From positions 1,603 to 65,602 of the forward strand of contig VAXZ01000111.1 in assembly GCA_005885035.1 (NCBI GenBank): a stretch of 64,000 nt of DNA, in the 5' to 3' direction. A program made the position numbers and the translations under genes. The first letter of the stretch is position 1; each line of letters opens with the position of its first letter. This document shows, piece after piece, positions 1 to 32,766 of this stretch. The stretch is from Actinomycetota bacterium. GTDB lineage: Bacteria > Actinomycetota > UBA4738 > HRBIN12. The notes below the pieces were generated by a model, which was given only the letters and a program-made list of their open reading frames with translations, had not been told where the DNA came from and did not search any database.

Positions 1-1028
1 TCGCGGGAGGGATCGCCGGTCACGGATATGACGTCGATCTGGTCCTCAGCCGCGCTGAGGGCCATTACCTCCAGGAGGTACCCGACTCGGTTCGGATCGT
101 GGACCTTCATGCGCGACGCCTCCTCTCGAGCATCCCCGGCCTCGTGCGCTACCTCCGTCGCGACCGCCCGAACGCGATGCTCACGTCCATGAACTACGTG
201 AACATCGTCGGTATCTGGGCCAGGACGATCGCGCGGGTGGATACCAGGTTGATCGTGAACGAGCAGAACGCGCTTTCGCTCGAAGCCGCGCACTCGCCCC
301 GCCGGCGACACCGGCTCATGCCACGATTGATCAGGCACTTCTATCCATGGGCCGACGGCGTGACGTCCGTCGCGCGGGGAACGGCGGACGATCTCGAAAG
401 CACGGCGGGTGTGTCCCCGAGCCTGATCGAGGTCGTGCACAACCCGATCGTGACCACGGAACTGCGAGAGCTGGTGGCGGAGCCGCTGGGCCATCCTTGG
501 TTCGGCCGCGGACAGGTCCCCGTGGTGCTCGGGGTAGGACGTCTCGCACCCCAGAAGGACTTCGGGACGCTGATCCGCGCCTTCGCTCGGGTGATCGCGC
601 GACGTCCATGTCGCCTCATGATCCTCGGGGACGGGCCCGAGCGGGCGTCCCTCGAGATGCTCGTCGCCGAACGAGGGTTGACGGGATCGGTCGATCTTCC
701 TGGTTGGATCTCCAACCCATACCCGTATATGGCGCATGCGGGCGTCTTCGTGCTTTCCTCTCGATGGGAAGGGCTTCCTTCGGTGCTGATCGAGGCGCTC
801 TTCTGCGGGGTTCCGGTCGTCGCCACGGACTGCCTCAGCGGTCCCCGGGAGATCCTCGAGGGCGGCAGGTACGGCGCGCTCGTCCCGGTCGGGAACGAGG
901 ACGCGCTCGCCGCGGCTATCGAGAGAGCGTTGACGGGCGAGTTGGAGCTACCGCCGGCGGAGAGCTGGGAACCGTACGAACAGGAGACCGTCGTGAGGCG
1001 CTACCTGGAAGTCCTGGTGGGAGGGTAG
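1..1028 (+). CDS. Glycosyltransferase family 4 (GT4), 5'-truncated by the window edge
   Basis: Reading frame is open from nt 3. ORF track gives 99..1028, but the upstream translation (AGGIAGHGYDVDLV...) still looks like a GT-B N-domain. C-terminal GT4 motifs GVGRLAPQKDF and SRWEGLPSVLIEALFCGVPVVATD. Stop lies 2 nt before the next start. Confidence 0.8.
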   Translation, partial: AGGIAGHGYDVDLVLSRAEGHYLQEVPDSVRIVDLHARRLLSSIPGLVRYLRRDRPNAMLTSMNYVNIVGIWARTIARVDTRLIVNEQNALSLEAAHSPRRRHRLMPRLIRHFYPWADGVTSVARGTADDLESTAGVSPSLIEVVHNPIVTTELRELVAEPLGHPWFGRGQVPVVLGVGRLAPQKDFGTLIRAFARVIARRPCRLMILGDGPERASLEMLVAERGLTGSVDLPGWISNPYPYMAHAGVFVLSSRWEGLPSVLIEALFCGVPVVATDCLSGPREILEGGRYGALVPVGNEDALAAAIERALTGELELPPAESWEPYEQETVVRRYLEVLVGG

Positions 1029-1030
1029 CG

Positions 1031-2239
1031 ATGCGGAGGGTCGTCTACGCGCTGTCGCTGGTCCTGATCTTCACGATCCCCTGGGAAGGAGCGCTGCAAT
1101 CGGGGCTGGGAACCATCGCGACGGTCATGGGGATCGTGGTGACGGTGCTCTGGGTCGCGCTGATCGCGATGACCGGGCAGATGCGCCGGCCGATCACTTT
1201 CCTCTACGTGACCTGCATCTTCGTGTTCTGGATCGGGCTCACGGCCTTCTGGAGCGCCGATCCCGTCAACAGCATGAGTGCCGTCCTTCGATGGATCGAG
1301 TCCCTCGTTTTCACCTTCACGCTGTGGGACCTCTACCGGACCCGAACGGAAGTCCTGATGGGCCTCCAGGCATACGTGCTCGGCTCCTACGTGGCCATCG
1401 CGGGAGCGTTCGCGAACTACCTCGGTTCGCACGCCTTCTACACCCACTACGAGCGCTTCAGTCCCGGCAACACCAATCCGGACGGGTACGGTTTCACGGT
1501 CGCCCTTGGTGTCCCGATCGCCTGCTACCTCGCTGCGGCTCCCGAGACCTCGAGACGAGCCCGGGCGATCAACCTTGCGTACCTCCCGGTGGGCTTCGTT
1601 GGCATCGCGCTGTCGGGGACCCGGACCGCGTCGGTGGCGGCAGCGGTCGGTCTGCTGTTCGGCCTCGCCCTGCTCACCCGACTGAAACTATCCACGCGGG
1701 TCGCGGTCGTGGCGCTCCTGGCGTCGACGATGCTCGTGGTGTTGCCGATCGTTCAACCGTTGAAGTCGTTCCAGCGGCTCGGGACGACCGGAACCGACCT
1801 CAGCCAAGGCAACCTGAACGGCAGGACCGCGCAATGGGCTCAAGGCTTCGTCGCCCTCTCCGATCATCCGTTCTTCGGCGTGGGCACCGACCAATACCGT
1901 TCCGTGAACACCCTCGACAAGGTGGCCCACAACTCCTACCTGTCGGTCATGGTCGAGCTCGGTTTGGTTGGCTTCGCGATGTTCGCCTCGATCCTGTGGA
2001 TCGCTTTCCGATACGCCTTGATCCAGCCGAAGTGGGACAGGAGGTTCTGGGTCACCCTCCTCACGGTTTGGGCGATCGGCGCTTCCACGCTGTCCTATGA
2101 ACATCGGAAGACGACATGGCTCGTCCTGACGCTGTGCGTGGCAGCCGGGTCGATCGTCCGTGAACCCGCACCGCCGGCACGTGAGGAACCCGACACGGTC
2201 GCGTCGGTCCCGGTTGGCGTCCTGGGCCGGTCCGGATGA
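1031..2239 (+). CDS. O-antigen ligase / Wzy-like polymerase family membrane protein
   Basis: ATG at 1031 (aa 229 of ORF 347..2239; upstream part is out-of-frame read-through over the GT). Multi-TM protein with FFGVGTDQYRSVNTLDKVAHNSYLSVMVELGLVGF (Wzy_C/O-antigen ligase signature). ATGA overlap with the next gene. Confidence 0.7.
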   Translation: MRRVVYALSLVLIFTIPWEGALQSGLGTIATVMGIVVTVLWVALIAMTGQMRRPITFLYVTCIFVFWIGLTAFWSADPVNSMSAVLRWIESLVFTFTLWDLYRTRTEVLMGLQAYVLGSYVAIAGAFANYLGSHAFYTHYERFSPGNTNPDGYGFTVALGVPIACYLAAAPETSRRARAINLAYLPVGFVGIALSGTRTASVAAAVGLLFGLALLTRLKLSTRVAVVALLASTMLVVLPIVQPLKSFQRLGTTGTDLSQGNLNGRTAQWAQGFVALSDHPFFGVGTDQYRSVNTLDKVAHNSYLSVMVELGLVGFAMFASILWIAFRYALIQPKWDRRFWVTLLTVWAIGASTLSYEHRKTTWLVLTLCVAAGSIVREPAPPAREEPDTVASVPVGVLGRSG

Positions 2240-3102
2240 CCCTTCCGACGTTCGTTGGGATCGGGGTTCCGCGCGCCGGGACGACCTGGCTGCACACGCT
2301 GCTATCCGGGCATCCGGACGCGTACCTCCCCACACGGCGGAAAGAAGTGCGGTTCTTCGACCGCCACTTCGACCGAGGGGTCGAATGGTACGAGGGGTTC
2401 TTCTCTCCTCCGGAGGGAGCTGGCGGATACCGAGCGATCGGCGAGATCTCTCCTCAGTACCTCTACGGCCAAGAGTGCCCGACGAGGATCGCGACGGTGC
2501 TGCCGTCCGCGAAGCTCCTCGTGATGCTGCGGCATCCGGTCGACCGGGCGTACTCCCAGTACGGGTTCCTCTTGCAACGGCGCAACTACCGGGGGTCGTT
2601 CGAAGAGTTCCTGAGGGCCAGACCGCGAGCCCTCGAGATGGGCTATTACAGCCGCCATCTGCGGAGGTACCTCGATCGCTTCGATCGGGGACAGATCCTG
2701 CCCATCGTCTTCGAGGAAGCCGTCCGCGGCGGCGAGACGGTCCGTCGCGATCTGGCCGGCTTCCTCGGCATCTCCGAAGGTGCGTTCCCGGCGGCGATCG
2801 ACCGCGTGAACGCGAGCTCCATGCCCAAGTACCCACGGATCGCGAACCTCGCCGTCAGGACCGGCCGACGCCTCAGGAGGCGGCACCTGGAATCGATCGT
2901 CGATCTGGGAGGTCGATTGGGTGTTCGCCGGTTCATGACGAGCGGCACGCAGGTTCCGAGATTGGATACTGACCTCAGGAGCGAGCTCGGCCGGCGGTAC
3001 GTGGATGAGTTCGATGCGCTGGAAGGGATGCTGGGCATCGATCTGAGCTGTTGGAAGGATCGGCCGGCGAAACGGAGGACGGGCGATGCCGCGCCGGTCT
3101 AG
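2236..3102 (+). CDS. PAPS-dependent sulfotransferase (P-loop sulfotransferase fold)
   Basis: 5'-PSB motif VPRAGTTWLH and 3'-PB motif RHPVDRAYSQY. 288 aa. Confidence 0.8.
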   Translation: MTLPTFVGIGVPRAGTTWLHTLLSGHPDAYLPTRRKEVRFFDRHFDRGVEWYEGFFSPPEGAGGYRAIGEISPQYLYGQECPTRIATVLPSAKLLVMLRHPVDRAYSQYGFLLQRRNYRGSFEEFLRARPRALEMGYYSRHLRRYLDRFDRGQILPIVFEEAVRGGETVRRDLAGFLGISEGAFPAAIDRVNASSMPKYPRIANLAVRTGRRLRRRHLESIVDLGGRLGVRRFMTSGTQVPRLDTDLRSELGRRYVDEFDALEGMLGIDLSCWKDRPAKRRTGDAAPV

Positions 3103-4324
3103 GACACGACCGAACGGGGATCGGTCGCTCGACGTGTTGATCGTGTCCCAGCCCGCCGACTACGGTGTCGCGATCTACGTCCGGGAGCTGGCCCGATCGG
3201 CCGTGGAGGCCGGGCACGATGTGACCGTGATCAGCCCCCCGGAGTCGCGAGGGCCCTTGGCCAGCTGGGTCACGAGCGTCGGAGCCCGGCATCACACACT
3301 CGACATGGCCCGCAGGCCCGCCCTCCGTGATCCCTTCGACGTCTTGACCCTCCGCCGTCTCGCGCGAGGGCGCGACGTCCTGCACGTGCATTCGTCCAAG
3401 GCGGCCGCGCTCGGGCGCGTCGCGGCAGCGACCCTGCCGCGACGAGCCCGACCCGCGGTCGTGATGACTCCCCACTACTGGTCGTGGCTCGTCGGCGGGC
3501 GGCTTGAGGCCCTCTACCGGTGGATCGAGCGGCTGCTTGCTCGCCGCTGCGACGTGATCGTCGCCGTCTCCGAACGGGAAGAGGTGGAAGGTCGCTCGGT
3601 GCTGGGCGCGGACGCCCGACTGCTGTTGATACCGAACGGCGTCGATCGAGCACACTTCTCCCCTGAGGGACCGTCTGCGGAACGAGACGTCGGCCATCCC
3701 CTGATCGCCTGCGTGGGAAGGCTGAGCGAGCAGAAGGGTCAGGACGTCGCGATCCGCGCGCTCGCGCTGCTGAGCGATCGCACGTCGAGGCTCCGCCTCG
3801 TCGGGGGGGAGAGCACCCCGGGGCACCGCAGGCAGTTGGAGGAGCTCGCCAACTCGCTCGGCGTCGCGGAGCGGATCGAGTGGCGCGGTCCCGTGGACGA
3901 CACCGCCCCCGAGTACCGCGCCGCCGACGTGGTCATCGCGCCGTCCCGGTGGGAAGGCATGTCGCTCGCGTCGCTGGAGGCATTGTCGTGCGGTTCGGCG
4001 ATGGTCGCCACCGATGTGTCCGGGAGCGAAGCCCTCGGGTCCGCAGCCGTGATCGTGCCTCGAGACGATCCCGATGGGCTGGCCGGAGCCATCGACAGGC
4101 TCCTTCGCGATCCGGAGAAGCGGCGAGCGCTCGGGCTTGCGGCGAGAGCCCAGAGCCGGCCGTTCGACGTGTCCGCGACGATGCGTCGGAACCTCGATCT
4201 GTGGACCGAGCTCGTGCATGGAGGAGCCTGGCAAAGGAGTCAGGAGGACGGCTCGGGAGCGGTCGGGTCGGCCGTGCCCGGGACGCCTTCCGCTGCAACA
4301 GGGACGTGGACGACGGATGCGTGA
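3086..4324 (+). CDS. Glycosyltransferase family 4
   Basis: SRWEGMSLASLEALSCGSAMVATDVSGS and GRLSEQKG motifs. 412 aa. Overlaps the flanking genes. Confidence 0.85.
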   Translation: MPRRSRTRPNGDRSLDVLIVSQPADYGVAIYVRELARSAVEAGHDVTVISPPESRGPLASWVTSVGARHHTLDMARRPALRDPFDVLTLRRLARGRDVLHVHSSKAAALGRVAAATLPRRARPAVVMTPHYWSWLVGGRLEALYRWIERLLARRCDVIVAVSEREEVEGRSVLGADARLLLIPNGVDRAHFSPEGPSAERDVGHPLIACVGRLSEQKGQDVAIRALALLSDRTSRLRLVGGESTPGHRRQLEELANSLGVAERIEWRGPVDDTAPEYRAADVVIAPSRWEGMSLASLEALSCGSAMVATDVSGSEALGSAAVIVPRDDPDGLAGAIDRLLRDPEKRRALGLAARAQSRPFDVSATMRRNLDLWTELVHGGAWQRSQEDGSGAVGSAVPGTPSAATGTWTTDA

Positions 4325-5138
4325 CGCCTCCGACGACACGCTCCCGCCCGTCCGGTACGTGAGCATGCCCGGGAGCCCCTACACGGGTTCCACACTCTTG
4401 GGGATGCTGATGGCCAATCACCCTGCTTGTACCTCGATCGGCGCGGCGACGGGTCTCACGGCCAAGGTGGATCTGGACACCTACCTGTGCTCGTGCGGCC
4501 TGCTGTTCACCGAGTGCTGCTTCTGGCATCGCATCGCCCGACGGACGGAGGAGCTCGGGTATCCGGTGACCGTGTTCAAGACGAACTTCTGGAACACACA
4601 TGTCCGGGTCTCGGGACGCCGATGGCTCAACGGGGTCGTCGTGAGCTCGCTCGGGAACCCCTCGTTGACGGCCATCCGCGACGCGACGGTCGGCAGGACC
4701 CCTCCGGTTCGCCGGCGCGTCTCGGAGGCGAGGGCAACCACGTGGAGCCTGGCTCGGTCGATCCTGGAGGAGACGGGCAGGAGCGTGTTCGTGGACACGG
4801 CGCGTGATCATCAACGTCCGCGCTACCTCGCAGGTGCACCTGGCCTGCGGCTCAAGGTCATCCATCTGGTCCGCGATCCGCGCGGCAACGTCGCCAGCAT
4901 CATGAAGCACACCGGCGTCGACGTCGGGCACGCGGCTCGCCAGTGGCGCCACTACAACGTGGAGGCCGATCGCGTCGGTCGCTCGTTCCCACGCGGAGCG
5001 TGGATGCGGCTGCATTACGAGGAGCTGTGCTCGCAACCGCAAGAGACACTGGAGCGCGTCGCGATGTTCATCGGGGTGGAGCCCATCCCGGTGTCCGATC
5101 ACCTGCAGCCATCCGAGCATCATGTGATCGGCAACTGA
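4317..5138 (+). CDS. Sulfotransferase (P-loop fold)
   Basis: ATG at 4317 (aa 82 of ORF 4074..5138), overlapping the GT stop by 8 nt. SMPGSPYTGSTLLG (PSB-like loop) and KVIHLVRDPRGNVAS (3'-PB-like RDPR). Confidence 0.7.
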   Translation: MRDASDDTLPPVRYVSMPGSPYTGSTLLGMLMANHPACTSIGAATGLTAKVDLDTYLCSCGLLFTECCFWHRIARRTEELGYPVTVFKTNFWNTHVRVSGRRWLNGVVVSSLGNPSLTAIRDATVGRTPPVRRRVSEARATTWSLARSILEETGRSVFVDTARDHQRPRYLAGAPGLRLKVIHLVRDPRGNVASIMKHTGVDVGHAARQWRHYNVEADRVGRSFPRGAWMRLHYEELCSQPQETLERVAMFIGVEPIPVSDHLQPSEHHVIGN

Positions 5139-5150
5139 CCTCGGGTACGA

Positions 5151-6008
5151 GTGGCCATGAGCGACTCTCGCCGGCTGCTCGTGTTCGTCCACATCAACAA
5201 GACGGCTGGAACGACCGTGCGATACATCCTGCGCAGCTCGTACGGGGCTCGGCATTGCGACGTGGAGCCGTGGCACGGCGCCTGGACTGACCCCCCGTTC
5301 TCGACCCCCGACCTGCAGCGCGTCCGTCGGCTCTACCCGAGGCTCACCAGCATCGCCGGCCACCGCGTGAGCGGATACATCGACCTGGAGGAGCCCGGGA
5401 CCGAGTTCAGGTACCTGACCTTCCTCCGCGAACCGATCGCCCTCTGTGCTTCTCGCTTCCAATATCGCCTCGACCACCGGAAGAGGACCGATCTTTCCTT
5501 CGAGGCATGGATCCAGAAGGACTGGGTTCGCAACGCCCAGACGCAGCGGATCGGCGGTACGGCGGATGCGAACGAGGCGATCTCGGTGATCTCCCGGAAA
5601 GAGATGTTCGTCGGCGTCACCGAGGCGTTCGACCGCTCCATCGTCTTGCTGCGCGCCCTCCGCGCACCTGACCTCGACATCCGCTACGCGCCGGTGAACG
5701 TCGCCAAGAGCTCGCGCATCGCGAAGGATCTTCTGGACGATCCTCGCACCCGGGCGATGATCGTGGAGGCGAACCAGGCCGATCTCGAGCTCTACCGGCA
5801 CGTGAAGGAGGAGCTCTTCCCGGCGATGGAGCGCGGATACGGTCCTTCGCTCGCCGATTCCGTCGCAGCGTTCCGTGACGGTCAGGCGAAGCGATTCAAC
5901 CGGCGGCATCTGGCCATGTACGGGCTCAAGCAGCGCTTGGTGCTCCAGCCGGCTATGAAGCTCTACCGACGGTCGAGCAGGCACGACGTCGTCGACGTGC
6001 CTCATTGA
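5151..6008 (+). CDS. Sulfotransferase, Sulfotransfer_2-like (HS2ST/Gal3ST-type)
   Basis: N-terminal FVHINKTAGTT resembles the FVHIPKTGGT 5'-PSB of Sulfotransfer_2 enzymes. 285 aa. Starts 13 nt after the previous gene. Confidence 0.6.
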   Translation: MAMSDSRRLLVFVHINKTAGTTVRYILRSSYGARHCDVEPWHGAWTDPPFSTPDLQRVRRLYPRLTSIAGHRVSGYIDLEEPGTEFRYLTFLREPIALCASRFQYRLDHRKRTDLSFEAWIQKDWVRNAQTQRIGGTADANEAISVISRKEMFVGVTEAFDRSIVLLRALRAPDLDIRYAPVNVAKSSRIAKDLLDDPRTRAMIVEANQADLELYRHVKEELFPAMERGYGPSLADSVAAFRDGQAKRFNRRHLAMYGLKQRLVLQPAMKLYRRSSRHDVVDVPH

Positions 6009-6308
6009 GCATCAGGGACCGGACCCTCAACGATCCAGCCGAAGGCTGAGGTCCCTGCCGATGAGCTCCGCGGTCTTGCCGATGCCGTCTCGGAAGCGCT
6101 CGCGCAACTCCGTCGCGAGCTTCCTCGGGCGATCGGGGCGCGCGACGCAGGTTCCCGCGTCCGTGTTCGTCGCGCCCAGTCCCCCGCTCGCTTCGGGATC
6201 CACGGATCGACCTCTCTCCCGAGCGAGTCGTTCGTGAAGACGCGCTCGAGCAGCATGGGGCCGTCGTCCCCGCCTTCGCCGCGCCGACGACGATGAGATC
6301 GGGAAGCG

Positions 6309-7769
6309 TCACGGTGCGCTCGGATCGGACCCGTCGATCGCTTCCCGGATCGCGTCCTTGATCTCGATCACGACGCTCTCGAACGCTCGGTCGGTATCGA
6401 TGCGATGGACCACCGAACCATCGAATCGGAGATCGGCGCTGATCGCATGCCGCAGCCGCACGTAGCCTTCGGGCTCCCGCTTCTGTCGGTGAGCGTTCCG
6501 AGCGAGCGTGACCTCGAGCGGGGCCGTGAGATGGAACACGATGTCGGGAGCGGGGATGTCCCGATACAGCCGACCTTCGAGCGCAGCCAAGACGCGGCGA
6601 GCCGACGGACGACCGGAGCGCAGGGGGAGATGCCCGAGCTGCGGCCCGTCCGGAGCACCCCCCGTTCCCGAGGGGTACCGATCACTCAGGACGATCGTTC
6701 CGCCAGGGGACCGCTCGAGGGCTCCGAGGATCAGCGCCCGTCGCTCGTACGCCAGCATGATGGAGCGGAACGCGAACAGGAGCGGGTAGCCCCCTCGCGT
6801 CGGAGGATCCTCCTCCATCTTGGCTTCGACCCGAAGAAGTCGCTGCTCGGGGAACAGGGTCCGGAACGCGGGCAGCAGGACATGGGGGAGGAAGGTGAGC
6901 CACGTGCTCGGCGGCTTCCCCGCGTGGATCCGCCGGACCTGATGGTCCCGACCGAGCCAAGCCTCGACCTCGTTCAGGATCGTGGACTTGCCACTCGCCT
7001 CGGACCCCACGAACGCGATCGATCGGACGGGGATCTGCGGCGTCTCGCCGCCGGCTCCGCCCAAGCCGACGAGGACCTGGTGCACCACATCCTCGAATCC
7101 CTCGCGGGAGTCGTCGGTGATCTCGGCGATCAGGAGTCGTTCGCGGATCGCTTCCCTCACCGCCAGGCGTTCGAAGAGCTCCACGGCACGCGCGAGCCTG
7201 CCCGCGACCTGGTTGCGGCTCCGTCCGGCCAGCTCACGGCGCGGATCTGGACGTCTCATCGCACGTTCCACCAGCAGATCGAGCGGAGCCCTCACGTAGA
7301 CGATGCGGTCGGGCATGGGAACCAGGCGAGCGAAGCGGTCCAGATCGACGTCCCCGTACGGAGCATCGCTGTACACGAATAGTTGGTACGCCGAGAGGAG
7401 GACCCCTTCGTCGACCAGAACCGTCCTCCGGTCGGACGCGCGGCGAGCCAACTCGTGCACGCCAACCTTCCGGACGATGTTCAGCCGGTAGTTGTACTTC
7501 GCGAACGTGGATGGCGCGTAGCGCCGGAGTCGGTCGAACGCGAAGCGGACGAACTCCCCATCCCGCCTATACGCTCGGACGAACGACGGGAACGAGATCA
7601 CGTCCGCCGCGAGATTGATCGTGCTGGGATCGGTTATCCACCGCAGGCCCGCACGGTCGCGCACCAGATCGACGGACAGGATCGCGCGAGAGCCGTTGCT
7701 CCGCCGACGAACCTCCTTCGCGAGGCTCGTCTTCCCCGCTCCGCTGCACCCGATGAACTCAACGATCAT
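6309..7769 (-). CDS. Tandem double P-loop NTPase/kinase-like protein, function unknown
   Basis: Two Walker A motifs (FIGCSGAGKTS and FVGSEASGKST), each followed by similar downstream blocks (DEGVLLSAYQLF). Likely start is M34 (MIVEF) at 7769, which forms an ATGA overlap with the stop of the upstream GT gene. ORF track start is 7868. Confidence 0.55.
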   Translation of the reverse strand: MIVEFIGCSGAGKTSLAKEVRRRSNGSRAILSVDLVRDRAGLRWITDPSTINLAADVISFPSFVRAYRRDGEFVRFAFDRLRRYAPSTFAKYNYRLNIVRKVGVHELARRASDRRTVLVDEGVLLSAYQLFVYSDAPYGDVDLDRFARLVPMPDRIVYVRAPLDLLVERAMRRPDPRRELAGRSRNQVAGRLARAVELFERLAVREAIRERLLIAEITDDSREGFEDVVHQVLVGLGGAGGETPQIPVRSIAFVGSEASGKSTILNEVEAWLGRDHQVRRIHAGKPPSTWLTFLPHVLLPAFRTLFPEQRLLRVEAKMEEDPPTRGGYPLLFAFRSIMLAYERRALILGALERSPGGTIVLSDRYPSGTGGAPDGPQLGHLPLRSGRPSARRVLAALEGRLYRDIPAPDIVFHLTAPLEVTLARNAHRQKREPEGYVRLRHAISADLRFDGSVVHRIDTDRAFESVVIEIKDAIREAIDGSDPSAP

Positions 7770-8929
7770 CGGTGGGGCACCGCCGGTCGTGCCGTCTCCA
7801 GATACACGGCATCGGTGGCCGTACGCATGACGGGCAACGTGAAACGCGCGCTCACGTGCGCTCGGCACAGGCGACCGATCTCGCGCCGCTCGTCGGACGA
7901 CATCGCTCGGTAACGCCTGATCTGCATCGCGAACCCTTCGACGTCACCCGGCCGGACGAACGGGATGAACCCGGCGTCTTCGGCGATCTCTCGGTGGGGC
8001 GGGATGTCGGACAGGATGACCGGGCATCCGGCAGCCATCGCCTCCAGGACGGCCACCGGCAGACCCTCGCCGTTCGAGGTGGAGACGAAGACGTCGGCTT
8101 CGGCGCACGCGACGAACACCTCTTCTCGGGGGATGAGGCCTCGCAACGTGACGCGGTCCCGAAGGCCCGCGCGGTCGATCCGGGCTTCCAGCTCCGTTCC
8201 GAGCCGTCCCCCACCGATGAAGACGAGTCGACCGCCGTCGTCGCGGTCCACGCTGCTTGCGAACGCGTCGAGCATGACGAACGGGTCCTTCACGACATCG
8301 AGACGACCTACGGACAGGACGGTGAAGCGCCCATCCTCCCTGCCGACCGGGGCGGCAGCGACGGCGCGGTCGACCCGGTCGATGTCAGCTCCGTTCTGGA
8401 CGACCCGCCAACGATCGCGTACGAGCCATTTCAGCGCCCGCGGCAGGCTCTCGTACGCCGACCGGCTGCAGAAGATCACGCGATGGAAGGTCGCGAGGGG
8501 GACGACCATCAACGCCTTGTCCCGAAGCCGGTAATCGTAGAACGAATCCTGGACGGTGTAGACCAGCGAACGCCGGAGCCGGCGCGATCGGCGCCGGGCG
8601 AGCACCGCGAGCAGCAACAGGACGCCCGACTGCGGGGCGTGAGCATGGATGACGTCGTAGTCATCGGCATCCAGCGCGCGCCCCAAACTTCGGAAGAACC
8701 CTCTCAGCGTTCCGTCACCAGCGAACATCGTGATCTCCGAAGGTGGGGTCAATCGCGGCACGAAGTAGGTGCTGATCGAGAGATCGCGCTCTCCGATCAA
8801 CGGGAGACAGTGCTCGTTGTACTGCCCGTTGGTCTCGCCGAGCATCAGGATCAGGTGCAAGACCTTGAGCCTTCGCACGGCGGCATCCTGCGTGCCGGTC
8901 GGGACGGGTCGGCCCTCGCTATCGAGCAT
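7766..8929 (-). CDS. Glycosyltransferase family 4
   Basis: GEGLPVAVLEAMAAGCPVILSDIPPHREI; GT-B fold. 387 aa. Confidence 0.85.
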   Translation of the reverse strand: MLDSEGRPVPTGTQDAAVRRLKVLHLILMLGETNGQYNEHCLPLIGERDLSISTYFVPRLTPPSEITMFAGDGTLRGFFRSLGRALDADDYDVIHAHAPQSGVLLLLAVLARRRSRRLRRSLVYTVQDSFYDYRLRDKALMVVPLATFHRVIFCSRSAYESLPRALKWLVRDRWRVVQNGADIDRVDRAVAAAPVGREDGRFTVLSVGRLDVVKDPFVMLDAFASSVDRDDGGRLVFIGGGRLGTELEARIDRAGLRDRVTLRGLIPREEVFVACAEADVFVSTSNGEGLPVAVLEAMAAGCPVILSDIPPHREIAEDAGFIPFVRPGDVEGFAMQIRRYRAMSSDERREIGRLCRAHVSARFTLPVMRTATDAVYLETARPAVPHR

Positions 8930-9716
8930 GTGTTGTCAAGCGGGGCCGGAGCTCCGTCGCGAGCAGGTCGGCCGTGGCTCCCTCGGTATCGAGGCGAAAT
9001 ACCTCCGGTGCCCCCCAGGCCTCGATGCGACGGAGCACCGCGTCGAACGATCGGCGGTACGTGTCGAGGAACCGGTAGCCCTCCTCGACCCCCTCGCCCT
9101 TCGTCCTGTGGAGCTGAGAACGCCCGTTGATCCTCCGCCACAGAACATCGTCGGGTGCATCCAGCCAGACGATCGCGCTGAGCTCTCGAACCCATAACCG
9201 AAGCATGTCCTCCCACCACGCATCGAAGGCGGGCGTGGCCGTGAACGGCTTCCCTTCAGCCTTCAGACGAACGAGGGCGTAGATCGGCCCCTGATCGAGC
9301 ACGGTGACGCCGCCGCGGCGGCGCATCTCACGTCGGAGGACGGTCCGCCACCGCGTCACGTACACCAAGAGCTTGAACTCCGGCCACGTCATCCGAGGCG
9401 GTCGGCGGTCGGTCGCGAGGATCGGCAGCAGGCGCGGGGTCGCCGTCGCGACCCGGAGGAGGTGGGATGGCAGCCGCGTGTGGATGAAACCGCCCACGGC
9501 GAACTCGGAGTCCTCGCACATTGACCGCGTGAGGGTGGACTTCCCGGAACCCGCCACGCCTGCGACTTCGACCAGGCGTGGCTTCGGCAGCGTCGGAAGG
9601 CGGGACCAGCGACGATGATCGATGGTGGTGCCCACGATGCCGTCGAAACCTCCCTTTCGGCCGAGATGCTCGTGCTTCGATGGGAAACGGTACGCGGGCA
9701 CCTCGCTTGCGGCCAT
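8919..9716 (-). CDS. P-loop NTPase/kinase-like protein, single-module paralogue of 6309..7769
   Basis: Walker A VAGVAGSGKSTL. LDQGPIYALVRL and WLDAPDDVLWRRI blocks resemble each half of the tandem protein. Confidence 0.5.
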   Translation of the reverse strand: MAASEVPAYRFPSKHEHLGRKGGFDGIVGTTIDHRRWSRLPTLPKPRLVEVAGVAGSGKSTLTRSMCEDSEFAVGGFIHTRLPSHLLRVATATPRLLPILATDRRPPRMTWPEFKLLVYVTRWRTVLRREMRRRGGVTVLDQGPIYALVRLKAEGKPFTATPAFDAWWEDMLRLWVRELSAIVWLDAPDDVLWRRINGRSQLHRTKGEGVEEGYRFLDTYRRSFDAVLRRIEAWGAPEVFRLDTEGATADLLATELRPRLTTHAR

Positions 9717-9821
9717 CTGATGAACGCCGTACCTGGGCTACGGTCCGCGGTGCAGGGCGGATCATGCCGCCCTCGTCGACGCGCAAGAAGCGGCCAGCCG
9801 AGGGCGCGAACGTAGCCTCGG

Positions 9822-9839
9822 TACATCGGTTGCGTGATG
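9822..9839 (+). promoter_or_regulatory. Shared 18-nt motif TACAYCGGTTGCGTGATG, copy 1, in a divergent intergenic region
   Basis: 17/18 identity with 12393..12410. Lies between the divergent genes 8919..9716(-) and 10060..11439(+). Confidence 0.4.
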
Positions 9840-10059
9840 GGAACGCCGCACGCACCAGCGTCGCTCGCGTCTTAGGCGCGTCCTGAAAGAAAGATGGTGG
9901 CCGACGGGTCGCATCGGCTCGGTACGTTTCTTACGGCGAAACGCGCATGCGCTGGAAGGGACCGGACCGCCACACTCGGTTCTCCAGACCGCGGAGGGGC
10001 GAATGGAGAGCGCGATCACCGGGACCGTGCTTCGTGCACCGTGCGGCGGAGCCTAGAGG

Positions 10060-11439
10060 ATGGCTGTTCGCGAACCCCTCGTGGTTCTCCCCACGCCTCG
10101 CGTGTTGCGGTTCCGCCCTCCTCTTTCGAGTCTCATCCCCGTCACGGACGCGCTTGCCCTCGGGATCGTGTACGTCCTCGTGGGGTTCCACCCCGTCGCG
10201 ATCGTGTTCGCCGTGCTCACGTTCCTGATCCTCAACAGCGACTCATCTCGGATCTTCCGGGTCAACCCCCGTCTCGGCGACGACGCAGCCTGGTTGCTGG
10301 GTCGCGTGGCCGTCTCCCTCCTGTTGCTGATGTCGGTGGTGGCGGTCGCCAAGCTCCCGCTCGACATCCGCGCGCACCTGAGCAACCTCACGGTGATCGC
10401 GCCACTCTCCGCGATCGCCGTGATCATCGGCCGGGCGGCCGCGTACGCGTTGGGTCGGGCGGCGAAAGGTCGAGGCGTCGCCTCCGAGCGAACCCTGATC
10501 GTCGGAGAAGGCGAACTGGCGATCGGGCTCGCGAAGACCCTGCTGGACCATCAGGAGTTCGGGTTGCGGCCCGTCGGGTTCCTGGGCCGATCGCAGGATG
10601 GGTCCGCGGTCCTCCCCTTCCTCGGTGAGTGCGCGGAACTCGATCACGTCGTTCACCAGCATTCGGTGAGTCGAGTGCTCATCGCATTCGGCGATACCGA
10701 CGACAAGGATCTCGCGACCGTCCTTCGCGCCAGCGAGCGGACGCCCGCGGAGATCCACGTCGTTCCGCGATTCTTCGAACTGAGCGGGATCCCCCAGGGG
10801 GCCGCCGTTGACGACGTCTGCGGCATCCCGCTGTTCCACCTCCGCCGGCCGGCGCTCCGTGCGGCGGCACGGGTGGAGAAGCGGGCCTTCGACCTCGTTG
10901 GATCCACGCTCCTGCTCCTGCTCACCGCGCCGCTCCTCGCGATCGCCGCCCTCGCCGTCCGCTTGTCGAGCCCGGGTCCGATCCTGTTCCGGCAGAAGCG
11001 GGTCGGCCTCAACGGTCAGGTCTTCGAGATCGTCAAGTTCCGGACGATGCGCGAGAATGACGACTCCGACACGGCATGGTTCTCGGGCGACGACGATCGG
11101 GTGACCAGAGCCGGGCGCATCCTCCGGATGACGAGCATCGATGAGCTGCCGCAGCTGTTGAACGTGCTTCGGGGAGAGATGTCACTCGTCGGTCCCCGAC
11201 CGGAGCGACCCCACTACACGGACCAGTTCGCGGCCACCGTGTCCCGCTACGACGACCGACACCGGGTGCTCGGTGGGATCACCGGGTGGGCACAGATCCA
11301 TGGTCGATCGCGTGGCTTGGACGCCGTGCCGGAACGCGCACGCCTGGACAACTACTACATCGAGAACTGGTCGGTCTGGCGGGACCTCGTGATCATCGTC
11401 CGGACGGTCGCCGTGCTGCTGCGCGGCGACGACGGCTAA
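10060..11439 (+). CDS. Polyprenyl-phosphate glycosyl-1-phosphate transferase (WbaP/exopolysaccharide 'sugar transferase' family)
   Basis: N-terminal TM region. C-terminal catalytic domain with KRAFDLVGS...[19 protein letters not shown]...[24 protein letters not shown]. Confidence 0.9.
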
Positions 11440-12095
11440 GCGGTCGGCGTTCCGTCCGAGGAGAGGTAGCCAAGGCCTCTCAACGCTTCATCGATCCGGC
11501 AGGACCCGAACTCCGTGACGAGGCGCCGGAGGTCGCGCCGCGTCCGACCTCGCCCCGTGTAGGCGCGGAACCGGAGGGTCCTCGGCATGCCCGCGGGGGG
11601 GATCTCGTCCGGGTCCAGCTCCCAGGGGTGGAAATAGAACGTGAACCATGGGTTGGAGCGCAGGTGCTTCGCTACGCCCCAACGGAACACCGGATAGGGG
11701 ATCAAGCGGAAGTACGCGCCGCCGGCCCACGGGACGTGGATCGTCGCGATCGGGACGCGGGTCATCTGGATCTCCAACAGGCCGGGCCGGATCTCCGTGA
11801 CGGTCGCCCCTGGTGGGACCGTTGCCGAGATCTGCCCGTACCGATCGTGTTGCGTGAATCCGAAGTAACTGGAGTCGTACCGGTATCCGGCCTCAGCGAC
11901 CAGATCAAGGACGAGATCGCTCACGGAGAAGTTGGGTGCACGGACACCGAGAACCTCGGAGCCCGCTACCTGTTCGAGGCGGTCCTTCGACCGGCCGAGC
12001 TCCTCCTTGATCTCATCGGGGGTCAGCTGGTTCAGGTTCCGGTGCAGATAGGTATGACTGGCGATCTCGTGTCCATCGTCCACGATCCGCTGCAC
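11436..12095 (-). CDS. Polysaccharide deacetylase (NodB, EPS/PEP-CTERM-locus subtype), N-terminally disrupted
   Basis: HEIASHTYLH (NodB motif 2). The frame stays open upstream to 12266 and encodes DWFHAENV..TFFVLGWVAERYP, but it is closed by an in-frame TAG at 12267..12269 with no start codon. First usable start is GTG at 12095. Confidence 0.6.
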   Translation of the reverse strand: MQRIVDDGHEIASHTYLHRNLNQLTPDEIKEELGRSKDRLEQVAGSEVLGVRAPNFSVSDLVLDLVAEAGYRYDSSYFGFTQHDRYGQISATVPPGATVTEIRPGLLEIQMTRVPIATIHVPWAGGAYFRLIPYPVFRWGVAKHLRSNPWFTFYFHPWELDPDEIPPAGMPRTLRFRAYTGRGRTRRDLRRLVTEFGSCRIDEALRGLGYLSSDGTPTA

Positions 12096-12392
12096 GACCG
12101 CGGGGTAGCGTTCCGCGACCCACCCGAGGACGAAGAACGTCGATCGGACCCGGGCGGCTGCAAGGATATCCAGGAGCTCGTGAACGTTCGGTTCGAGCCT
12201 CGACTCCAGCCGGTCCCAATCATGCGTTGGCAGGCTCGCCCGGACGTTCTCGGCGTGGAACCAGTCCTAGCCTAGGGGACCCCTGGTTCGATGCCACCCG
12301 CGTCCACCATGCTCGAGTTCAAGCCGATGGACGGGGGGTTCAAGGGCGAAACGTGGCCTGCTGACCTGCCCCGCGAGATCGCGTACGTCGTC

Positions 12393-12410
12393 TACACCGG
12401 TTGCGTGATG
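12393..12410 (+). promoter_or_regulatory. Shared 18-nt motif TACAYCGGTTGCGTGATG, copy 2
   Basis: Lies between the divergent deacetylase gene (-) and the metallophosphoesterase gene (+). Confidence 0.4.
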
Positions 12411-12568
12411 TCGCACCTACGGTCTCGGACCTAGGGTGCAGTGAACGATCGCGCGCCGCCGCGCGAGCTTCCCTTGCGTCTGCACCCTTGAGTGGCGGCG
12501 AGACATGGGGGAGTCGTCGTGGAGCAGCCATCAGGAGCCAAGTGGGTCTCAACCTGTTGGGACGCATC

Positions 12569-13868
12569 ATGATCGTGTCACCGCGGAAGCCGCTCGAATG
12601 GGTGGTTGTCTTCTCATTGCTCGTGGCCGCAACCGTCCTGGTTCCCGTCACCGCCGAGGCCTCCAGCAACTGCGGCACCTCGAGCGGCCACAACCTTTGC
12701 CTCTCGGCTGCTGACACCCTGACCGGTGAACAGACCGTCACCGTCACGAACTCGCCCAACAACGGCGTCGTGTTCGCGACGTGGGTCCCGTCGGGCGGGA
12801 AAGCCCTGCAACTCATAGAGATCGATGCGCCCTCCCCGGCCACGACCGACTATTCCTTCGTGTGGCCGACCCAGAAATACCTGGACGGCTCGGGCACCCT
12901 GTCCCTACAGGCAGGTTCGATCGGCTCGGCGGCCGTCATGATCGCCGTCACCCTGAGCAATGGCAACACAACGGACTTCCAACACAGCCCGAAGGACTGG
13001 ATGAACTCCCTACCCGGATCGTGGACGGGGCCGGAGGATCCGACGATCCTCGCGGTCGGGGACGGCCCGTCGAACGAGGTGACGTCCAACGCCGTCGCCA
13101 GCCGGATCGCCGCACTCGATCCACCGTTGTTCCTGTTCCTCGGCGATGTCTATGAGACGGGCACGTTTACAGAGTTCCGGAACCATTACGGGGCTTCTGA
13201 GCTCGACACGCCTGGGGCGGGGACGCTCTGGGGAGAGACCGCCGACATCACGCAGCCCACCCTCGGGAATCACGAGAAGCCCAACTCAGCGGCCTTCATC
13301 GACTACTGGCACGGGAGGCCGCTCTTCACGAGCTTCACGTTCGGCGGGACCCTGTTCCTTGACATGAACTCAAGCGCGTCGATGAGCGCGACCAGCGCGC
13401 AGTACCAGTTCGTCAAGAGCGCGGTCACCAACCCTTCAGCCCCGAACTGCATCGTCGCCTTCTGGCATATCCCCGCCGTTGTAACGAACACGTCGGTGAC
13501 GGCCGGTCAGACAGCCATGTGGGCGCTGCTCGCGAACAACGGCGTCGATCTACTGGTGACCGGGCACCAGCACAAGATGGTGGAGTTCAACCCGCTCGAC
13601 GCCGATCTCAACCCCACGCCGCAGGCCCACCTGGTGCAGCTGGTCTCCGGAGCGGGGGGGCACAAGCTCGCCGGGCCGACCTCCGTCGGAGCACGCGTCG
13701 CGTGGTCGAAGGGGGGCACGGCGGGATTGCTCTCGCTGTCGCTCGCCGGAGCAGCCGGGGGGAACGCTGCAACGAGTATCGGCTGGCAGTTCCAGACCGT
13801 AAGCGGGAGCGATCTCCATGATGGATCGGTCGACTGTGGCTCCGTCGCGAACCACGCCCCGGTCGTGA
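12569..13868 (+). CDS. Secreted calcineurin-like metallophosphoesterase (3' end frameshifted)
   Basis: ATG at 12569 (aa 57 of ORF 12401..14590) followed by a signal peptide MIVSPRKPLEWVVVFSLLVAATVLVPVTAEA. Phosphoesterase motifs LFLGDVYETG, TLGNHE and VTGHQHK. The rest of the ORF track's 729-aa read-through is low-complexity Arg/Gly out-of-frame sequence. Confidence 0.7.
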
Positions 13869-13892
13869 ACTCCGAGCTCCCCCACGACGTCC

Positions 13893-14525
13893 GTGTCCTT
13901 CGACACCGCCGGGACGTACGTCCTGCGGCTCACCGGAGACGACAGCGCGCTCCAGTCCTCGGACGACGTCACGGTGACGGTGTTACCGGAAGGGGTGGCC
14001 ACGCTCACGGTGCCCATCGGCGCGAGTTCGGACGACGCCGAAGAGTCATCCGTCGACGGATCGGTCGCGCTGGGGAACCCAGCCCTCAAGATCGTGAACC
14101 GCGCCGGTGTGAACCAGACCGTGGGGCTACGGTTCGCCGGATTGTCGATCCCGCAGGGCGCGACCATCCAGAATGCCTACATCCAGTTCCAGTGCAGGGT
14201 GCAGACCACCGCGGCTGCGTCGCTCTTGATCGAGGGGCAGGCAGCGGACAACCCAAGTACGTTCGCGAGGATCACGAACAACATCTCCTCCCGTGCTCGA
14301 ACGTCGGCCGACGTCGGGTGGGTCCCGGCGCCGTGGGGAACGGTCGGAGCACAGGGTCCCGATCAACAGACGCCGGATCTCACCAGCGTCATGCAAGAGA
14401 TCGTCAACCGCGGAGGATGGGGCCCCGGCGATCCCATGGTCTTCATCATCACCGGCACGGGAGTCCGCACGGCGGAAGCCTTCGACGGCCTGTTCGCGCC
14501 CGTCCTTCACGTGACGTACGCGTAG
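13893..14525 (+). CDS. C-terminal beta-rich domains of the metallophosphoesterase, encoded in the +1 frame
   Basis: Frame opens right after TGA at 13866..13868. SFDTAGTYVLRLTGDDSALQSSDDVTVTV is Ig/PKD-like, followed by a domain with IPQGATIQNAYIQFQ. Confidence 0.5.
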   Translation: MSFDTAGTYVLRLTGDDSALQSSDDVTVTVLPEGVATLTVPIGASSDDAEESSVDGSVALGNPALKIVNRAGVNQTVGLRFAGLSIPQGATIQNAYIQFQCRVQTTAAASLLIEGQAADNPSTFARITNNISSRARTSADVGWVPAPWGTVGAQGPDQQTPDLTSVMQEIVNRGGWGPGDPMVFIITGTGVRTAEAFDGLFAPVLHVTYA

Positions 14526-14586
14526 GTCCGCGGACGGGCATCGCCTCGTTCCGGCGTTGCCGGTTGGCACTCGCCTGGCTATCCTG

Positions 14587-14613
14587 TTAGCACTCAAGGC
14601 CTAGGAGTGCTAA
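14587..14613 (+). promoter_or_regulatory. CIRCE operator (HrcA-binding inverted repeat) upstream of groES
   Basis: TTAGCACTC-AAGGCCTAG-GAGTGCTAA is a perfect 9-N9-9 match to the CIRCE consensus, 53 nt upstream of groES. Confidence 0.9.
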
Positions 14614-14665
14614 TGGCTCCTCGGGCCCGGACGGTAGGGAAGACCGAAGGAGGAGGTAGTCGAGG

Positions 14666-16593
<1,928 letters not shown>

Positions 16594-31001: not shown

Positions 31002-31024
31002 GGCGCCTCAGCCTGAGAGGCGCC
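31002..31024 (+). terminator. Hairpin between convergent genes
   Basis: GGCGCCTC-AGCCTGA-GAGGCGCC. Includes the stop codon of the minus-strand gene. Confidence 0.35.
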
Positions 31025-32465: not shown

Positions 32466-32488
32466 CGCCGGAGACTAGCGGAAGGAAA

Positions 32489-32653
32489 CTAGTGGAAGAG
32501 TGCGAAGTATCCGGCGATCAGGATCAGCACGCCGACGACGACGGGGGCGATCACCCACGCGAGCCCGAGCCGGCCTCGGTACGGACCGAGCGTCCCGACC
32601 TTCGTGGTCGGCTTCAATCCCGGCGGCCGGATCGTCATCTTCTTGCGCGACAT
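32489..32653 (-). CDS. Small (54-aa) single-TM protein
   Basis: MSRKKMTIRPPGLKPTTKVGTLGPYRGRLGLAWVIAPVVVGVLILIAGYFALFH; basic N-terminus plus one TM helix. Confidence 0.35.
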   Translation of the reverse strand: MSRKKMTIRPPGLKPTTKVGTLGPYRGRLGLAWVIAPVVVGVLILIAGYFALFH

Positions 32654-32766
32654 CGTTCCGAGTGTACGAGGGCATCCTCGGCCGGAGCGGCACCGACCTT
32701 CGGCCCATTGACACAGCGCCTCCGGGCTGGCGTGATGGTTCTCGTCCGAGCCGGGAGGGGAAACCG

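Follow-up and report, generated by a model that had tools for sequence, protein, structure and literature searches.

A candidate pathway for a multiply sulfated exopolysaccharide in uncultured soil Actinomycetota

Described sulfated-glycan systems and the locus compared with them

Multiply sulfated sugar polymers are known from animals, algae, and cyanobacteria. Carbohydrate sulfotransferases that depend on 3'-phosphoadenosine 5'-phosphosulfate (PAPS), some of them from Actinomycetota, also include mycobacterial Stf0/Stf3 and rhizobial NodH; their targets are trehalose lipids, menaquinone, and lipo-chitooligosaccharides, not Wzx/Wzy repeat units, and their genes do not lie in polymerase/flippase operons. 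Here we examined a 64,000-nucleotide stretch of DNA from an Actinomycetota bacterium (NCBI assembly GCA_005885035.1, contig VAXZ01000111.1, positions 1,603 to 65,602 of the forward strand), hereafter the window, which begins with a locus at positions 1–14525 in which three sulfotransferase genes (ST1, ST2, and ST3) are interleaved with genes for glycosyltransferases of the GT4 family and for polymer assembly. Judging from its gene content, this locus is likely to be the main part of a Wzx/Wzy-dependent pathway for an acidic heteropolysaccharide carrying several sulfates per repeat unit in an uncultured soil lineage of Actinomycetota.

Sulfated polysaccharides are still called rare in bacteria outside cyanobacteria (PMC8205485, PMC13390465), and the synechan xss cluster of Synechocystis sp. 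PCC 6803, which combines Wzx/Wzy with two sulfotransferases, has a chemically verified product (PMC8205485). As in the present locus, xss sulfotransferases of different subfamilies lie among glycosyltransferase, Wzx, Wzy, and polysaccharide co-polymerase (PCP) genes, and sulfation of the lipid-linked unit in the cytoplasm before flipping has been proposed (PMC8205485). The shared logic of this experimentally proven cluster (PMC8205485) is one of the arguments for reading the present locus as one for a sulfated polymer. The two systems differ in several respects. The xss cluster is plasmid-borne in a diderm cyanobacterium that needs an outer membrane polysaccharide export (OPX) protein, and it has the regulators XssQ/R/S (PMC8205485). 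It lacks a deacetylase and the module of P-loop kinases and a nucleotidyltransferase that are both present here. Synechan has two sulfotransferases for an eight-sugar repeat, whereas the present locus has three or four sulfotransferases for three GT4 enzymes and a priming enzyme, so that the implied sulfate density is much higher. Finally, synechan is chemically proven, whereas the present locus is known from its genes alone.

A cluster from an organism of the same phylum, wps-1 of Actinoplanes missouriensis, was described in June 2026. It encodes Wzx, Wzy, and Wzz and is needed for normal sporangia; its authors state that sulfation awaits verification (PMC13390465). By their descriptions, the heparan sulfate (HS) sulfotransferase-like WpsH and the Gal/GlcNAc/GalNAc sulfotransferase-like WpsB correspond to the broad types of ST1 and ST3, and wps-1 also encodes a kinase-like protein (PMC13390465). 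That cluster has two sulfotransferases, a methyltransferase, a GH26 protein, and WpsI with a protein-kinase fold, and is without kinases of the deoxynucleoside kinase/thymidylate kinase (dNK/TMPK) fold or the fusion of an NTP_transf_5-like nucleotidyltransferase to such a kinase that characterizes the present locus (PMC13390465). Its role is linked to the formation of sporangia, and its host is a filamentous actinomycete in culture, whereas the locus described here belongs to an uncultured lineage. The sulfated capsular polysaccharide of Vibrio sp. KMM 8419, whose structure has been solved, is associated with three sulfotransferases in a polysaccharide region (PMC11641403). The embedding of several sulfotransferase genes in a polysaccharide biosynthesis region is shared with our locus, but the Vibrio capsule is made by a Gram-negative bacterium through an ABC-transporter (Kps) pathway and its cluster contains a second copy of cysDNC for PAPS (PMC11641403); no cysDNC genes were found here in the window or in 7.7 kb upstream of it. 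Pontiella species also make sulfated exopolymers (PMC7356697).

The enzymes of animal HS synthesis offer a further comparison. ST1 aligns with HS 3-O-sulfotransferase (3-OST) and N-deacetylase/N-sulfotransferase (NDST), the model of ST3 is nearest to HS 2-O- and 6-O-sulfotransferases (2-OST and 6-OST), and a deacetylase is encoded in the same locus, so that the enzyme types match those of the NDST-plus-O-sulfotransferase system. In animals these are type II membrane proteins of the Golgi lumen that act on the finished polymer, whereas those described here are predicted to be soluble and cytoplasmic and would probably act on a lipid-linked unit. The deacetylase here is of the NodB/CE4 type and is separate from the sulfotransferases.

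The concept of a bacterial sulfated exopolysaccharide (EPS) cluster is thus already published, including a prediction in the same phylum, and sulfated EPS has only recently been suspected in actinobacteria. The initial annotation of this DNA had called such loci rare and essentially uncharacterized in Actinomycetota. Given the wps-1 cluster (PMC13390465) and the characterized sulfated EPS and capsule clusters of Synechocystis (PMC8205485) and Vibrio (PMC11641403), this is somewhat overstated. From its sequence, the locus appears distinct from known ones in its uncultured soil actinobacterial host, in having more sulfotransferases and more sulfotransferase subfamilies per glycosyltransferase, in pairing a deacetylase with an NDST-like sulfotransferase, in having no PAPS genes within the cluster, and in its Wzx-linked module of kinases and a nucleotidyltransferase.

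Three sulfotransferases and the relic of a fourth

Coding frames in the window, where G+C content ranges from 65 to 73%, were chosen by third-position GC and then checked with profile searches; gene identities were assigned with the curated gathering cut-offs of the Protein family (Pfam) database and subfamilies with NCBIfam cut-offs. ST1 (288 amino acids, 2236–3102, plus strand) matched Sulfotransfer_3 with 64.5 bits and Sulfotransfer_1 with 60.1 bits (cut-offs 27 and 22), and ST2 (273 amino acids in the window, 4317–5138, plus strand) scored 45.7 and 27.2 bits against the same models (ranges 45.7–45.9 and 27–28 bits). ST3 (283 amino acids, 5157–6008, plus strand), of the Gal-3-O/HS 2-O/6-O (Sulfotransfer_2-like) type, matched Gal-3-O_sulfotr with 34.1 bits (cut-off 27). 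No NCBIfam model matched any of the three. In a sequence search of the Protein Data Bank (PDB), ST1 aligned over its full length with 3rnl, a bacterial structural-genomics sulfotransferase (3.6e-30), and its N-terminal 150–165 residues aligned with HS 3-OST-3A1 (1.2e-16) and with the sulfotransferase domain of NDST1 (5.6e-16), so that ST1 resembles the 3-OST/N-sulfotransferase (NST) type. Among solved structures, ST2 had only a marginal match (E = 0.005), to 4gox, a sulfotransferase domain from a polyketide synthase of the CurM type. Since ST3 had no usable sequence match among solved structures, an AlphaFold model was built from 32 homologues (pLDDT 84.7, pTM 0.85); the top seven Foldseek matches of this model in the PDB were HS 2-OST and 6-OST structures (1.6e-5 to 7e-4), followed by other sulfotransferases.

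Orthologues collected from 22–45 related loci (42 for ST1, 22 for ST2, and 28 for ST3) were then surveyed for the motifs that bind PAPS. The 5'-phosphosulfate-binding (5'-PSB) loop and the 3'-phosphate-binding (3'-PB) motif were invariant in all three families: GVPRAGTTW and LRHPVDRAYS in ST1, GSPYTGSTLLG and VRDPRGNVAS in ST2, and HINKTAGTT and LREPxxxCASRF (LREPIALCAS in the window) in ST3. The sole atypical feature is in the ST2 PSB loop, which has a Tyr where most sulfotransferases have Lys or Arg. The HMM searches identify the three ORFs as sulfotransferases and not as generic P-loop kinases; their PAPS motifs are invariant, and the sequence matches of ST1 and the fold matches of ST3 are to carbohydrate sulfotransferases. 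No signal peptide or transmembrane segment was found in the sequences of ST1, ST2, or ST3, and the three enzymes are therefore predicted to act in the cytoplasm.

Searches with Pfam found no ATP sulfurylase or adenosine 5'-phosphosulfate (APS) kinase domains (cysD/cysN/cysC) among the genes of the 64-kb window or of a 7.7-kb upstream flank, while the study of the Vibrio capsule treats PAPS-synthesis genes inside a cluster as a hallmark (PMC11641403). This absence favors an explanation in which the ST-like proteins do not sulfate a glycan, being inactive, using another donor, or having a lipid or small-molecule target, and in which the polymer is an ordinary non-sulfated acidic EPS. The atypical Tyr of ST2 would also fit this explanation, as would related Wzx/Wzy/kinase scaffolds that carry acetyltransferases in place of sulfotransferases; because of this replacement, the sulfotransferase genes look like interchangeable additions to a scaffold. 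We nevertheless find such an explanation very unlikely, since the PAPS motifs of three or four independent sulfotransferase subfamilies are strictly conserved across species that are 55–75% identical, the nearest solved relatives are carbohydrate sulfotransferases, and the sulfotransferase genes are interleaved with glycosyltransferase and Wzy genes through overlapping stop and start codons.

An exact-protein look-up with ST1 retrieved contigs from many soil metagenome assemblies, including metagenome-assembled genomes (MAGs) of the VAWJ, VAYZ, and VAZB series at NCBI that are titled 'Actinobacteria bacterium'. These sibling contigs share more than 99.7% identity with the window and reach 7.7 kb upstream of its first nucleotide, and all statements on the upstream flank were read from them and not from the window itself. 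Relative to the siblings, the window is short of 109 bp after position 5136, of about 99–130 bp after 12268, and of about 135 bp near 13870. In all three places at least one sibling scaffold has a run of N, and the contigs L003, L004, and L066 are gap-free and intact there; the truncated ST2, a deacetylase without a start codon, and a frame-shifted phosphoesterase gene are therefore most likely collapsed assembly gaps, and their reading as pseudogenes was rejected. In gap-free siblings ST2 has 317 amino acids and its gene overlaps that of ST3 by 4 nt.

The interval between ST3 and the following gene Ploop2 (6009–6308, minus strand) had at first been taken for a 300-bp intergenic gap. In the relative L067 (about 65% identity), an additional 306-amino-acid Sulfotransfer_3/_1 protein, here called ST4 (65.5 bits against Sulfotransfer_3), is encoded between ST3 and Ploop2. 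A tblastn search of the window with this protein gave matches at 6250–6131 and 6137–6048, and alignment to the intact gene of L007 showed that about 603 bp have been deleted internally. The N-terminal 'LPDLIVVGAAKAGTTA' fragment with its PSB motif (AKAGTT) has been kept, and the last approximately 75 codons lie in two other frames. The supposed gap is thus a deleted, frame-broken relic of ST4. By tblastn, ST4 is intact in L007, L009–L011, L013, L015–L017, L019, L021, L022, L024, L026, L030, L043, and L044, and it is in place in most sister species. With intact copies in sister species and fragments here, the ancestral cluster had four sulfotransferases, of which one was lost in the population represented by the window.

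This deletion, which is common to the window and all six sibling assemblies, together with the broken appearance of the ST2, deacetylase, and phosphoesterase genes in the window, could mean that the whole locus is decaying and non-functional in this genome. We regard this as extremely unlikely: the three truncations sit at N-gaps and are absent from the gap-free contigs, every other gene is complete, with more than 99.7% identity between independent assemblies, and in sister species that lack the ST4 deletion the remainder of the cluster is the same.

Polymer assembly genes and a kinase module

The remaining genes of the locus and those of its upstream flank make up an apparently full Wzx/Wzy toolkit. 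The first, encoding the glycosyltransferase GT4a (3–1028, plus strand; Glyco_trans_1_4 117.8 bits, with Glycos_transf_1 and Glyco_transf_4), begins 97 nt before the window, and the whole gene (L003 7669–8793) encodes 374 amino acids in sibling contigs. It is followed by a polytopic membrane protein of the Wzy_C family (402 amino acids, 1031–2239, plus strand; 69.5 bits, cut-off 31.7) with at least seven hydrophobic segments, whose gene adjoins sulfotransferase genes in nearly all related loci. GT4b (412 amino acids, 3086–4324, plus strand; Glyco_trans_1_4 114.9 bits, Glyco_transf_4 93.9 bits) lies between ST1 and ST2. A minus-strand operon that converges on the plus-strand sulfotransferase genes encodes, in order of transcription, the P-loop kinase-like protein Ploop1 (265 amino acids, 8919–9716; dNK/TMPK fold), GT4c (387 amino acids, 7766–8929; Glycos_transf_1 91.6 bits, Glyco_trans_1_4 87.2 bits), and the tandem P-loop kinase-like protein Ploop2 (486 amino acids, 6309–7769), which has two Walker A motifs and weak matches to AAA_18, AAA_33, and Thymidylate_kin. 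Gaps or overlaps at the junctions of the locus measure 2, 4, 17, 8, 11, and 4 nt, and the sulfotransferase genes are translationally coupled to the GT4 and Wzy genes through overlaps of 4–17 nt. A scan of positions 1–14700 for promoters and terminators gave counts no better than those of shuffled sequence.

Beyond this operon, a priming polyprenyl-phosphate hexose-1-phosphate transferase is encoded at 10060–11439 (459 amino acids, plus strand; Bac_transf 221.7 bits plus CoA_binding_3). It exceeded the cut-off of TIGR03025 EPS_sugtrans (386.4 versus 295.6) and scored 360 as WcaJ-type. The NodB-type polysaccharide deacetylase (11436–12268, minus strand; Polysacc_deac_1 93.4 bits, DUF3473 91.6 bits) lacks its start codon in the window at the collapsed gap and has 301 amino acids in sibling contigs; it scored 252 bits against TIGR03006, the XrtA-system polysaccharide deacetylase, just below the cut-off of 276. 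No signal peptide or transmembrane segment was found in the deacetylase, and no transmembrane segments in the P-loop kinases. The last member is a secreted metallophosphoesterase (approximately 12569–14525, plus strand; Metallophos 36.9–38.5 bits, with an N-terminal hydrophobic signal-like segment). When intact, it comprises about 696–720 amino acids with a PKD domain (K319L-like_PKD 56.5 bits in the intact L066) and a 218-amino-acid C-terminal domain; in the window its frame is broken near 13870 and part of the PKD domain is gone. Its C-terminal 218 amino acids (13869–14525) had no Pfam match, and this domain recurs at 44–51% identity near ST1 homologues in the differently organized loci L021, L025, L027, L031, L045, and L048. 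Because its position is held by a PKD/carbohydrate-binding module (CBM) protein in L067, where the phosphoesterase has not been kept, it is the least secure member of the locus and its place in the pathway is uncertain.

The flank read from sibling contigs continues outward from GT4a with a Wzx-like flippase (538 amino acids, L003 6056–7672; 12 hydrophobic segments, Polysacc_synt_3 27.5 bits with cut-off 23) and the NTP_transf_5-like nucleotidyltransferase fused to a TMPK-like P-loop domain (520 amino acids, L003 4491–6053). Divergent from these are a fusion of Wzz/GNVR domains to a bacterial tyrosine (BY) autokinase (550 amino acids, L003 2534–4186; Wzz, GNVR, and AAA_31/ParA matches, TIGR01007 153.6 with cut-off 108), a UDP-glucose 6-dehydrogenase (UGDH; TIGR03026 433.7 versus cut-off 189.8), a short-chain dehydrogenase/reductase (SDR) of the epimerase/dehydratase type, and a response regulator with a GerE domain. 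The initial annotation, made from the letters of the window, agrees well with these results. Its gene content and order for 1–14525 were borne out by Pfam and by third-position GC frames, its 2–17-nt linkage on the plus strand by the coordinates, and its WbaP-like primer by the assignment as a WcaJ/WbaP-type enzyme. It had seen no Wzx or Wzz and advised extending the contig upstream, and both lie just before the first nucleotide of the window. Its proposal of a dedicated pathway for a sulfated lipid-linked glycan thus gains in silico support from the identities of the sulfotransferases and from the upstream Wzx, Wzz, UGDH, and SDR genes.

From these genes we infer the following order of events. 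The UGDH and SDR enzymes would supply a precursor of the uronic-acid type (UDP-glucuronate type), and the Bac_transf enzyme would prime undecaprenyl phosphate with a hexose-1-phosphate, which the three GT4 enzymes would extend to roughly a tetrasaccharide. On the cytoplasmic face, the three soluble PAPS-dependent sulfotransferases of three subfamilies (four in most sister species) would each add one sulfate, perhaps after the NodB-type deacetylase, also cytoplasmic, has exposed an amine. The Wzx-like flippase would then move the unit across the membrane, the Wzy_C protein would polymerize it, and the Wzz/tyrosine-autokinase fusion would set chain length and export, with the dNK/TMPK-fold kinases and the nucleotidyltransferase-kinase fusion possibly forming an accessory module at the flippase step. 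With three or four sulfotransferases for approximately four sugars, a very high charge density is implied.

The assignment of the Wzy_C protein as the repeat-unit polymerase is taken from its Wzz/BY-kinase context, and the protein could instead be a ligase or O-oligosaccharyltransferase that transfers a sulfated glycan onto protein, lipid, or peptidoglycan, the product then being a short oligosaccharide or a wall-linked, teichuronic-acid-like chain and not a free polymer. Only two NCBIfam models matched it, both weakly: a putative O-glycosylation ligase (46.8 bits) and the O-oligosaccharyltransferase TfpM (37.2 bits); moreover, the best equivalog of the UGDH is the teichuronic-acid enzyme TuaD, and the GT4 proteins match TuaC weakly. 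These NCBIfam scores are, however, all far below cut-offs, neither the window nor the flank showed an LCP-family ligase, and a Wzz/BY-kinase co-polymerase, which would be expected for polymerization and chain-length control, adjoins the operon and is conserved with it. A product other than a free polymer therefore appears unlikely, and a sulfated Wzx/Wzy-dependent polymer is the reading we prefer.

Several points count against that preference. The main weakness is the absence of PAPS-synthesis genes nearby. The Pfam score behind the Wzx assignment is low, 27.5 bits for a cut-off of 23, and a Wzy_C domain alone is indistinguishable among polymerases, ligases, and O-oligosaccharyltransferases. 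ST2 combines the Tyr in its PSB loop with a marginal match to solved structures, and the loss of ST4 in the population of the window shows that the sulfation set can be partly lost. All of the evidence comes from the sequences of MAGs, and the host is uncultured.

The kinase-like proteins were examined as a module of their own. The Walker A motifs, LID arginines, and fold of Ploop1, Ploop2, and the C-terminal part of the NTP_transf_5 fusion fit the dNK/TMPK-like class of nucleoside or nucleotide kinases, and the C-terminal half of Ploop2, which is TMPK-like, is homologous to the kinase domain of the fusion (blastp, 1.3e-10). Ploop1 and Ploop2 had no solved-structure relative by sequence and no NCBIfam curated family, and the kinase names given to them at source are inconsistent. 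An assignment of the P-loop proteins as APS kinase (CysC) was tried and rejected, there being neither an APS_kinase profile match nor such a closest fold. We then scanned metagenomes with the NTP_transf_5 fusion, which gave 80 loci at 31–100% identity, and searched their flanks with local hidden Markov models (HMMs) of all cluster parts. In these 80 loci the fusion gene is nearly always followed by a Ploop1 homologue and lies within Wzx/Wzy/GT4 loci. A sulfotransferase gene was present in 15 of the 26 fusion loci of at least 10 kb and absent from the other 11, and no ORF with both PAPS motifs was found in the loci without one. Among the unassigned ORFs of four such loci, Pfam recognized hexapeptide and GNAT acetyltransferases, an ATP-grasp enzyme, and PGA_cap, BNR, and pectate-lyase-like proteins. 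As loci without sulfotransferases carry the same module, the module is a component of the EPS scaffold rather than one specific to sulfation. The 11 loci likewise weaken, short of formal exclusion, the idea that the fusion and the P-loop kinases provide a cluster-encoded, PAPS-synthase-like activation of sulfate.

A profile search of 1.84 billion representatives assigned approximately 1,000 clusters to the Ploop1 family at E ≤ 1e-10. Two of these proteins are fusions to Wzx-type flippases in opposite domain orders: P0361 (763 amino acids) has Polysacc_synt_3 (291 bits) and then Ploop1, and P0424 (740 amino acids) has Ploop1 and then a weak Polysacc_synt-like membrane domain. NTP5-Ploop1-Wzx and NTP5-Wzx-Ploop1, where NTP5 denotes the NTP_transf_5 fusion, are frequent gene orders. 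Because of the fusions and the recurrent gene orders, we tie the Ploop1 kinase to the flippase step, and these sequences suggest that it is physically coupled to Wzx. A literature search on PF14907 found nothing relevant. In L092 (metagenome contig Ga0209641_10000226), a Ploop1-ST3-Wzy triplet is duplicated in tandem within one EPS locus.

GroES and GroEL are encoded next to the locus, at 14666–16593, and the remaining genes of the window are housekeeping genes (glutamate dehydrogenase, guaB-like, guaA, pcrA, sucCD, purH, folD, gltA, icd, mdh, and sdh). A 493-amino-acid ORF at 32479–33957 (plus strand) has coding-like third-position GC and no Pfam match, and adjoins an N,N-dimethylformamidase-beta-like gene (31011–32474, minus strand). 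In the region of highest G+C content (0.73), at 36.8–39.2 kb, the plus strand encodes a polytopic membrane protein rich in Ala and Gly, and the minus strand encodes, upstream of purN, a zinc-ribbon protein in which the repeat 'YTH(T/S)[15 protein letters not shown]' occurs twice. This region resembles ordinary housekeeping DNA and is unrelated to the sulfated-glycan locus.

Conservation of the cluster and its significance

ST1 has 834 detectable homologues, the nearest 120 of which are at least 62% identical and come exclusively from uncultured organisms; where a source name is given, it reads 'sulfotransferase [Actinomycetota bacterium]'. The genomic context of ST1 homologues was examined with one genome per species, which resulted in 56 loci, all from MAGs. 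Most are labeled Actinomycetota, Actinomycetes, Thermoleophilia, Gaiellaceae, or Solirubrobacterales, with a few from Chloroflexota, Gemmatimonadales, Gammaproteobacteria, a cyanobacterial MAG, and a Saccharibacteria MAG. When all proteins of the locus were used in tblastn searches, the order NTP5-Wzx-GT4-Wzy-ST1-GT4-ST2-ST3-Ploop2-GT4-Ploop1 was recovered in approximately 20 of the 56 loci, at 47–94% identity per protein, and ST1, ST2, and ST3 occur together in 16 of these. This gene order is found again in at least 16 species-level genomes, at 55–75% amino-acid identity, and is not due to chance. The relative L067, about 65% identical and represented by a contig of 1.4 Mb, has kept the genes for priming transferase and deacetylase as well. 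Homologues of the cluster proteins occur in hundreds of soil metagenome contigs. The initial annotation held that its proposal would fall if this cluster proved to be widely annotated as an ordinary O-antigen or teichuronic acid locus, and no such annotation was seen; the names given to the proteins, which all come from uncultured MAGs, are only 'sulfotransferase', 'ATP-binding protein', and 'hypothetical protein'.

Gaiellaceae and Thermoleophilia MAGs contain a reduced version of the cluster (NTP5, GT4, Wzy, ST1, ST3, and GT4), as do two Anaerolineaceae MAGs. The Anaerolineaceae (Chloroflexota) loci L040 and L059 contain NTP5, GT4, Wzy, ST1, ST3, ST4, and P-loop genes at 34–55% identity, and a Binatia MAG (L034) has only a partial set (NTP5, ST1, GT4b, Ploop2, GT4c, and ST4). 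The copies in Chloroflexota and Binatia MAGs could reflect horizontal transfer or binning error.

A more far-reaching possibility, which we offer as tentative and on present evidence improbable, is that a widespread uncultured soil clade makes a glycosaminoglycan-like EPS with approximately one sulfate per sugar. The figure would follow if three or four sulfotransferases (3-OST/NST-like, CurM-sulfotransferase-like, and 2-/6-OST-like) act on a repeat of about four sugars. In such a polymer the deacetylase and the NDST-like ST1 might give rise to N-sulfation, a bacterial equivalent of the NDST chemistry of HS that for this locus is pure speculation, and the nucleotidyltransferase fusion with the dNK-fold kinases might constitute an unrecognized Wzx-coupled accessory system that modifies the lipid-linked unit or energizes or gates its export. 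Under this possibility, the locus would provide a genetic source for the large pool of ester sulfate in soil organic sulfur.

Enzymes that make sulfated polysaccharides are being sought for non-animal heparin-like materials (PMC13353177). Here a whole lineage of soil Actinomycetota has retained a compact cluster encoding three or four different sulfotransferases of the carbohydrate type, which offers new candidate polysaccharide sulfotransferases to test. The set also varies naturally, with ST4 kept or deleted between sister populations and acetyltransferases swapped in within related scaffolds, and this variation could help to assign each enzyme its position in the glycan. The Wzx-linked kinase and nucleotidyltransferase module is an uncharacterized part of EPS loci from many environments. 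Much of the organic sulfur in soil is ester sulfate, and the locus described here is a candidate microbial origin for part of it.

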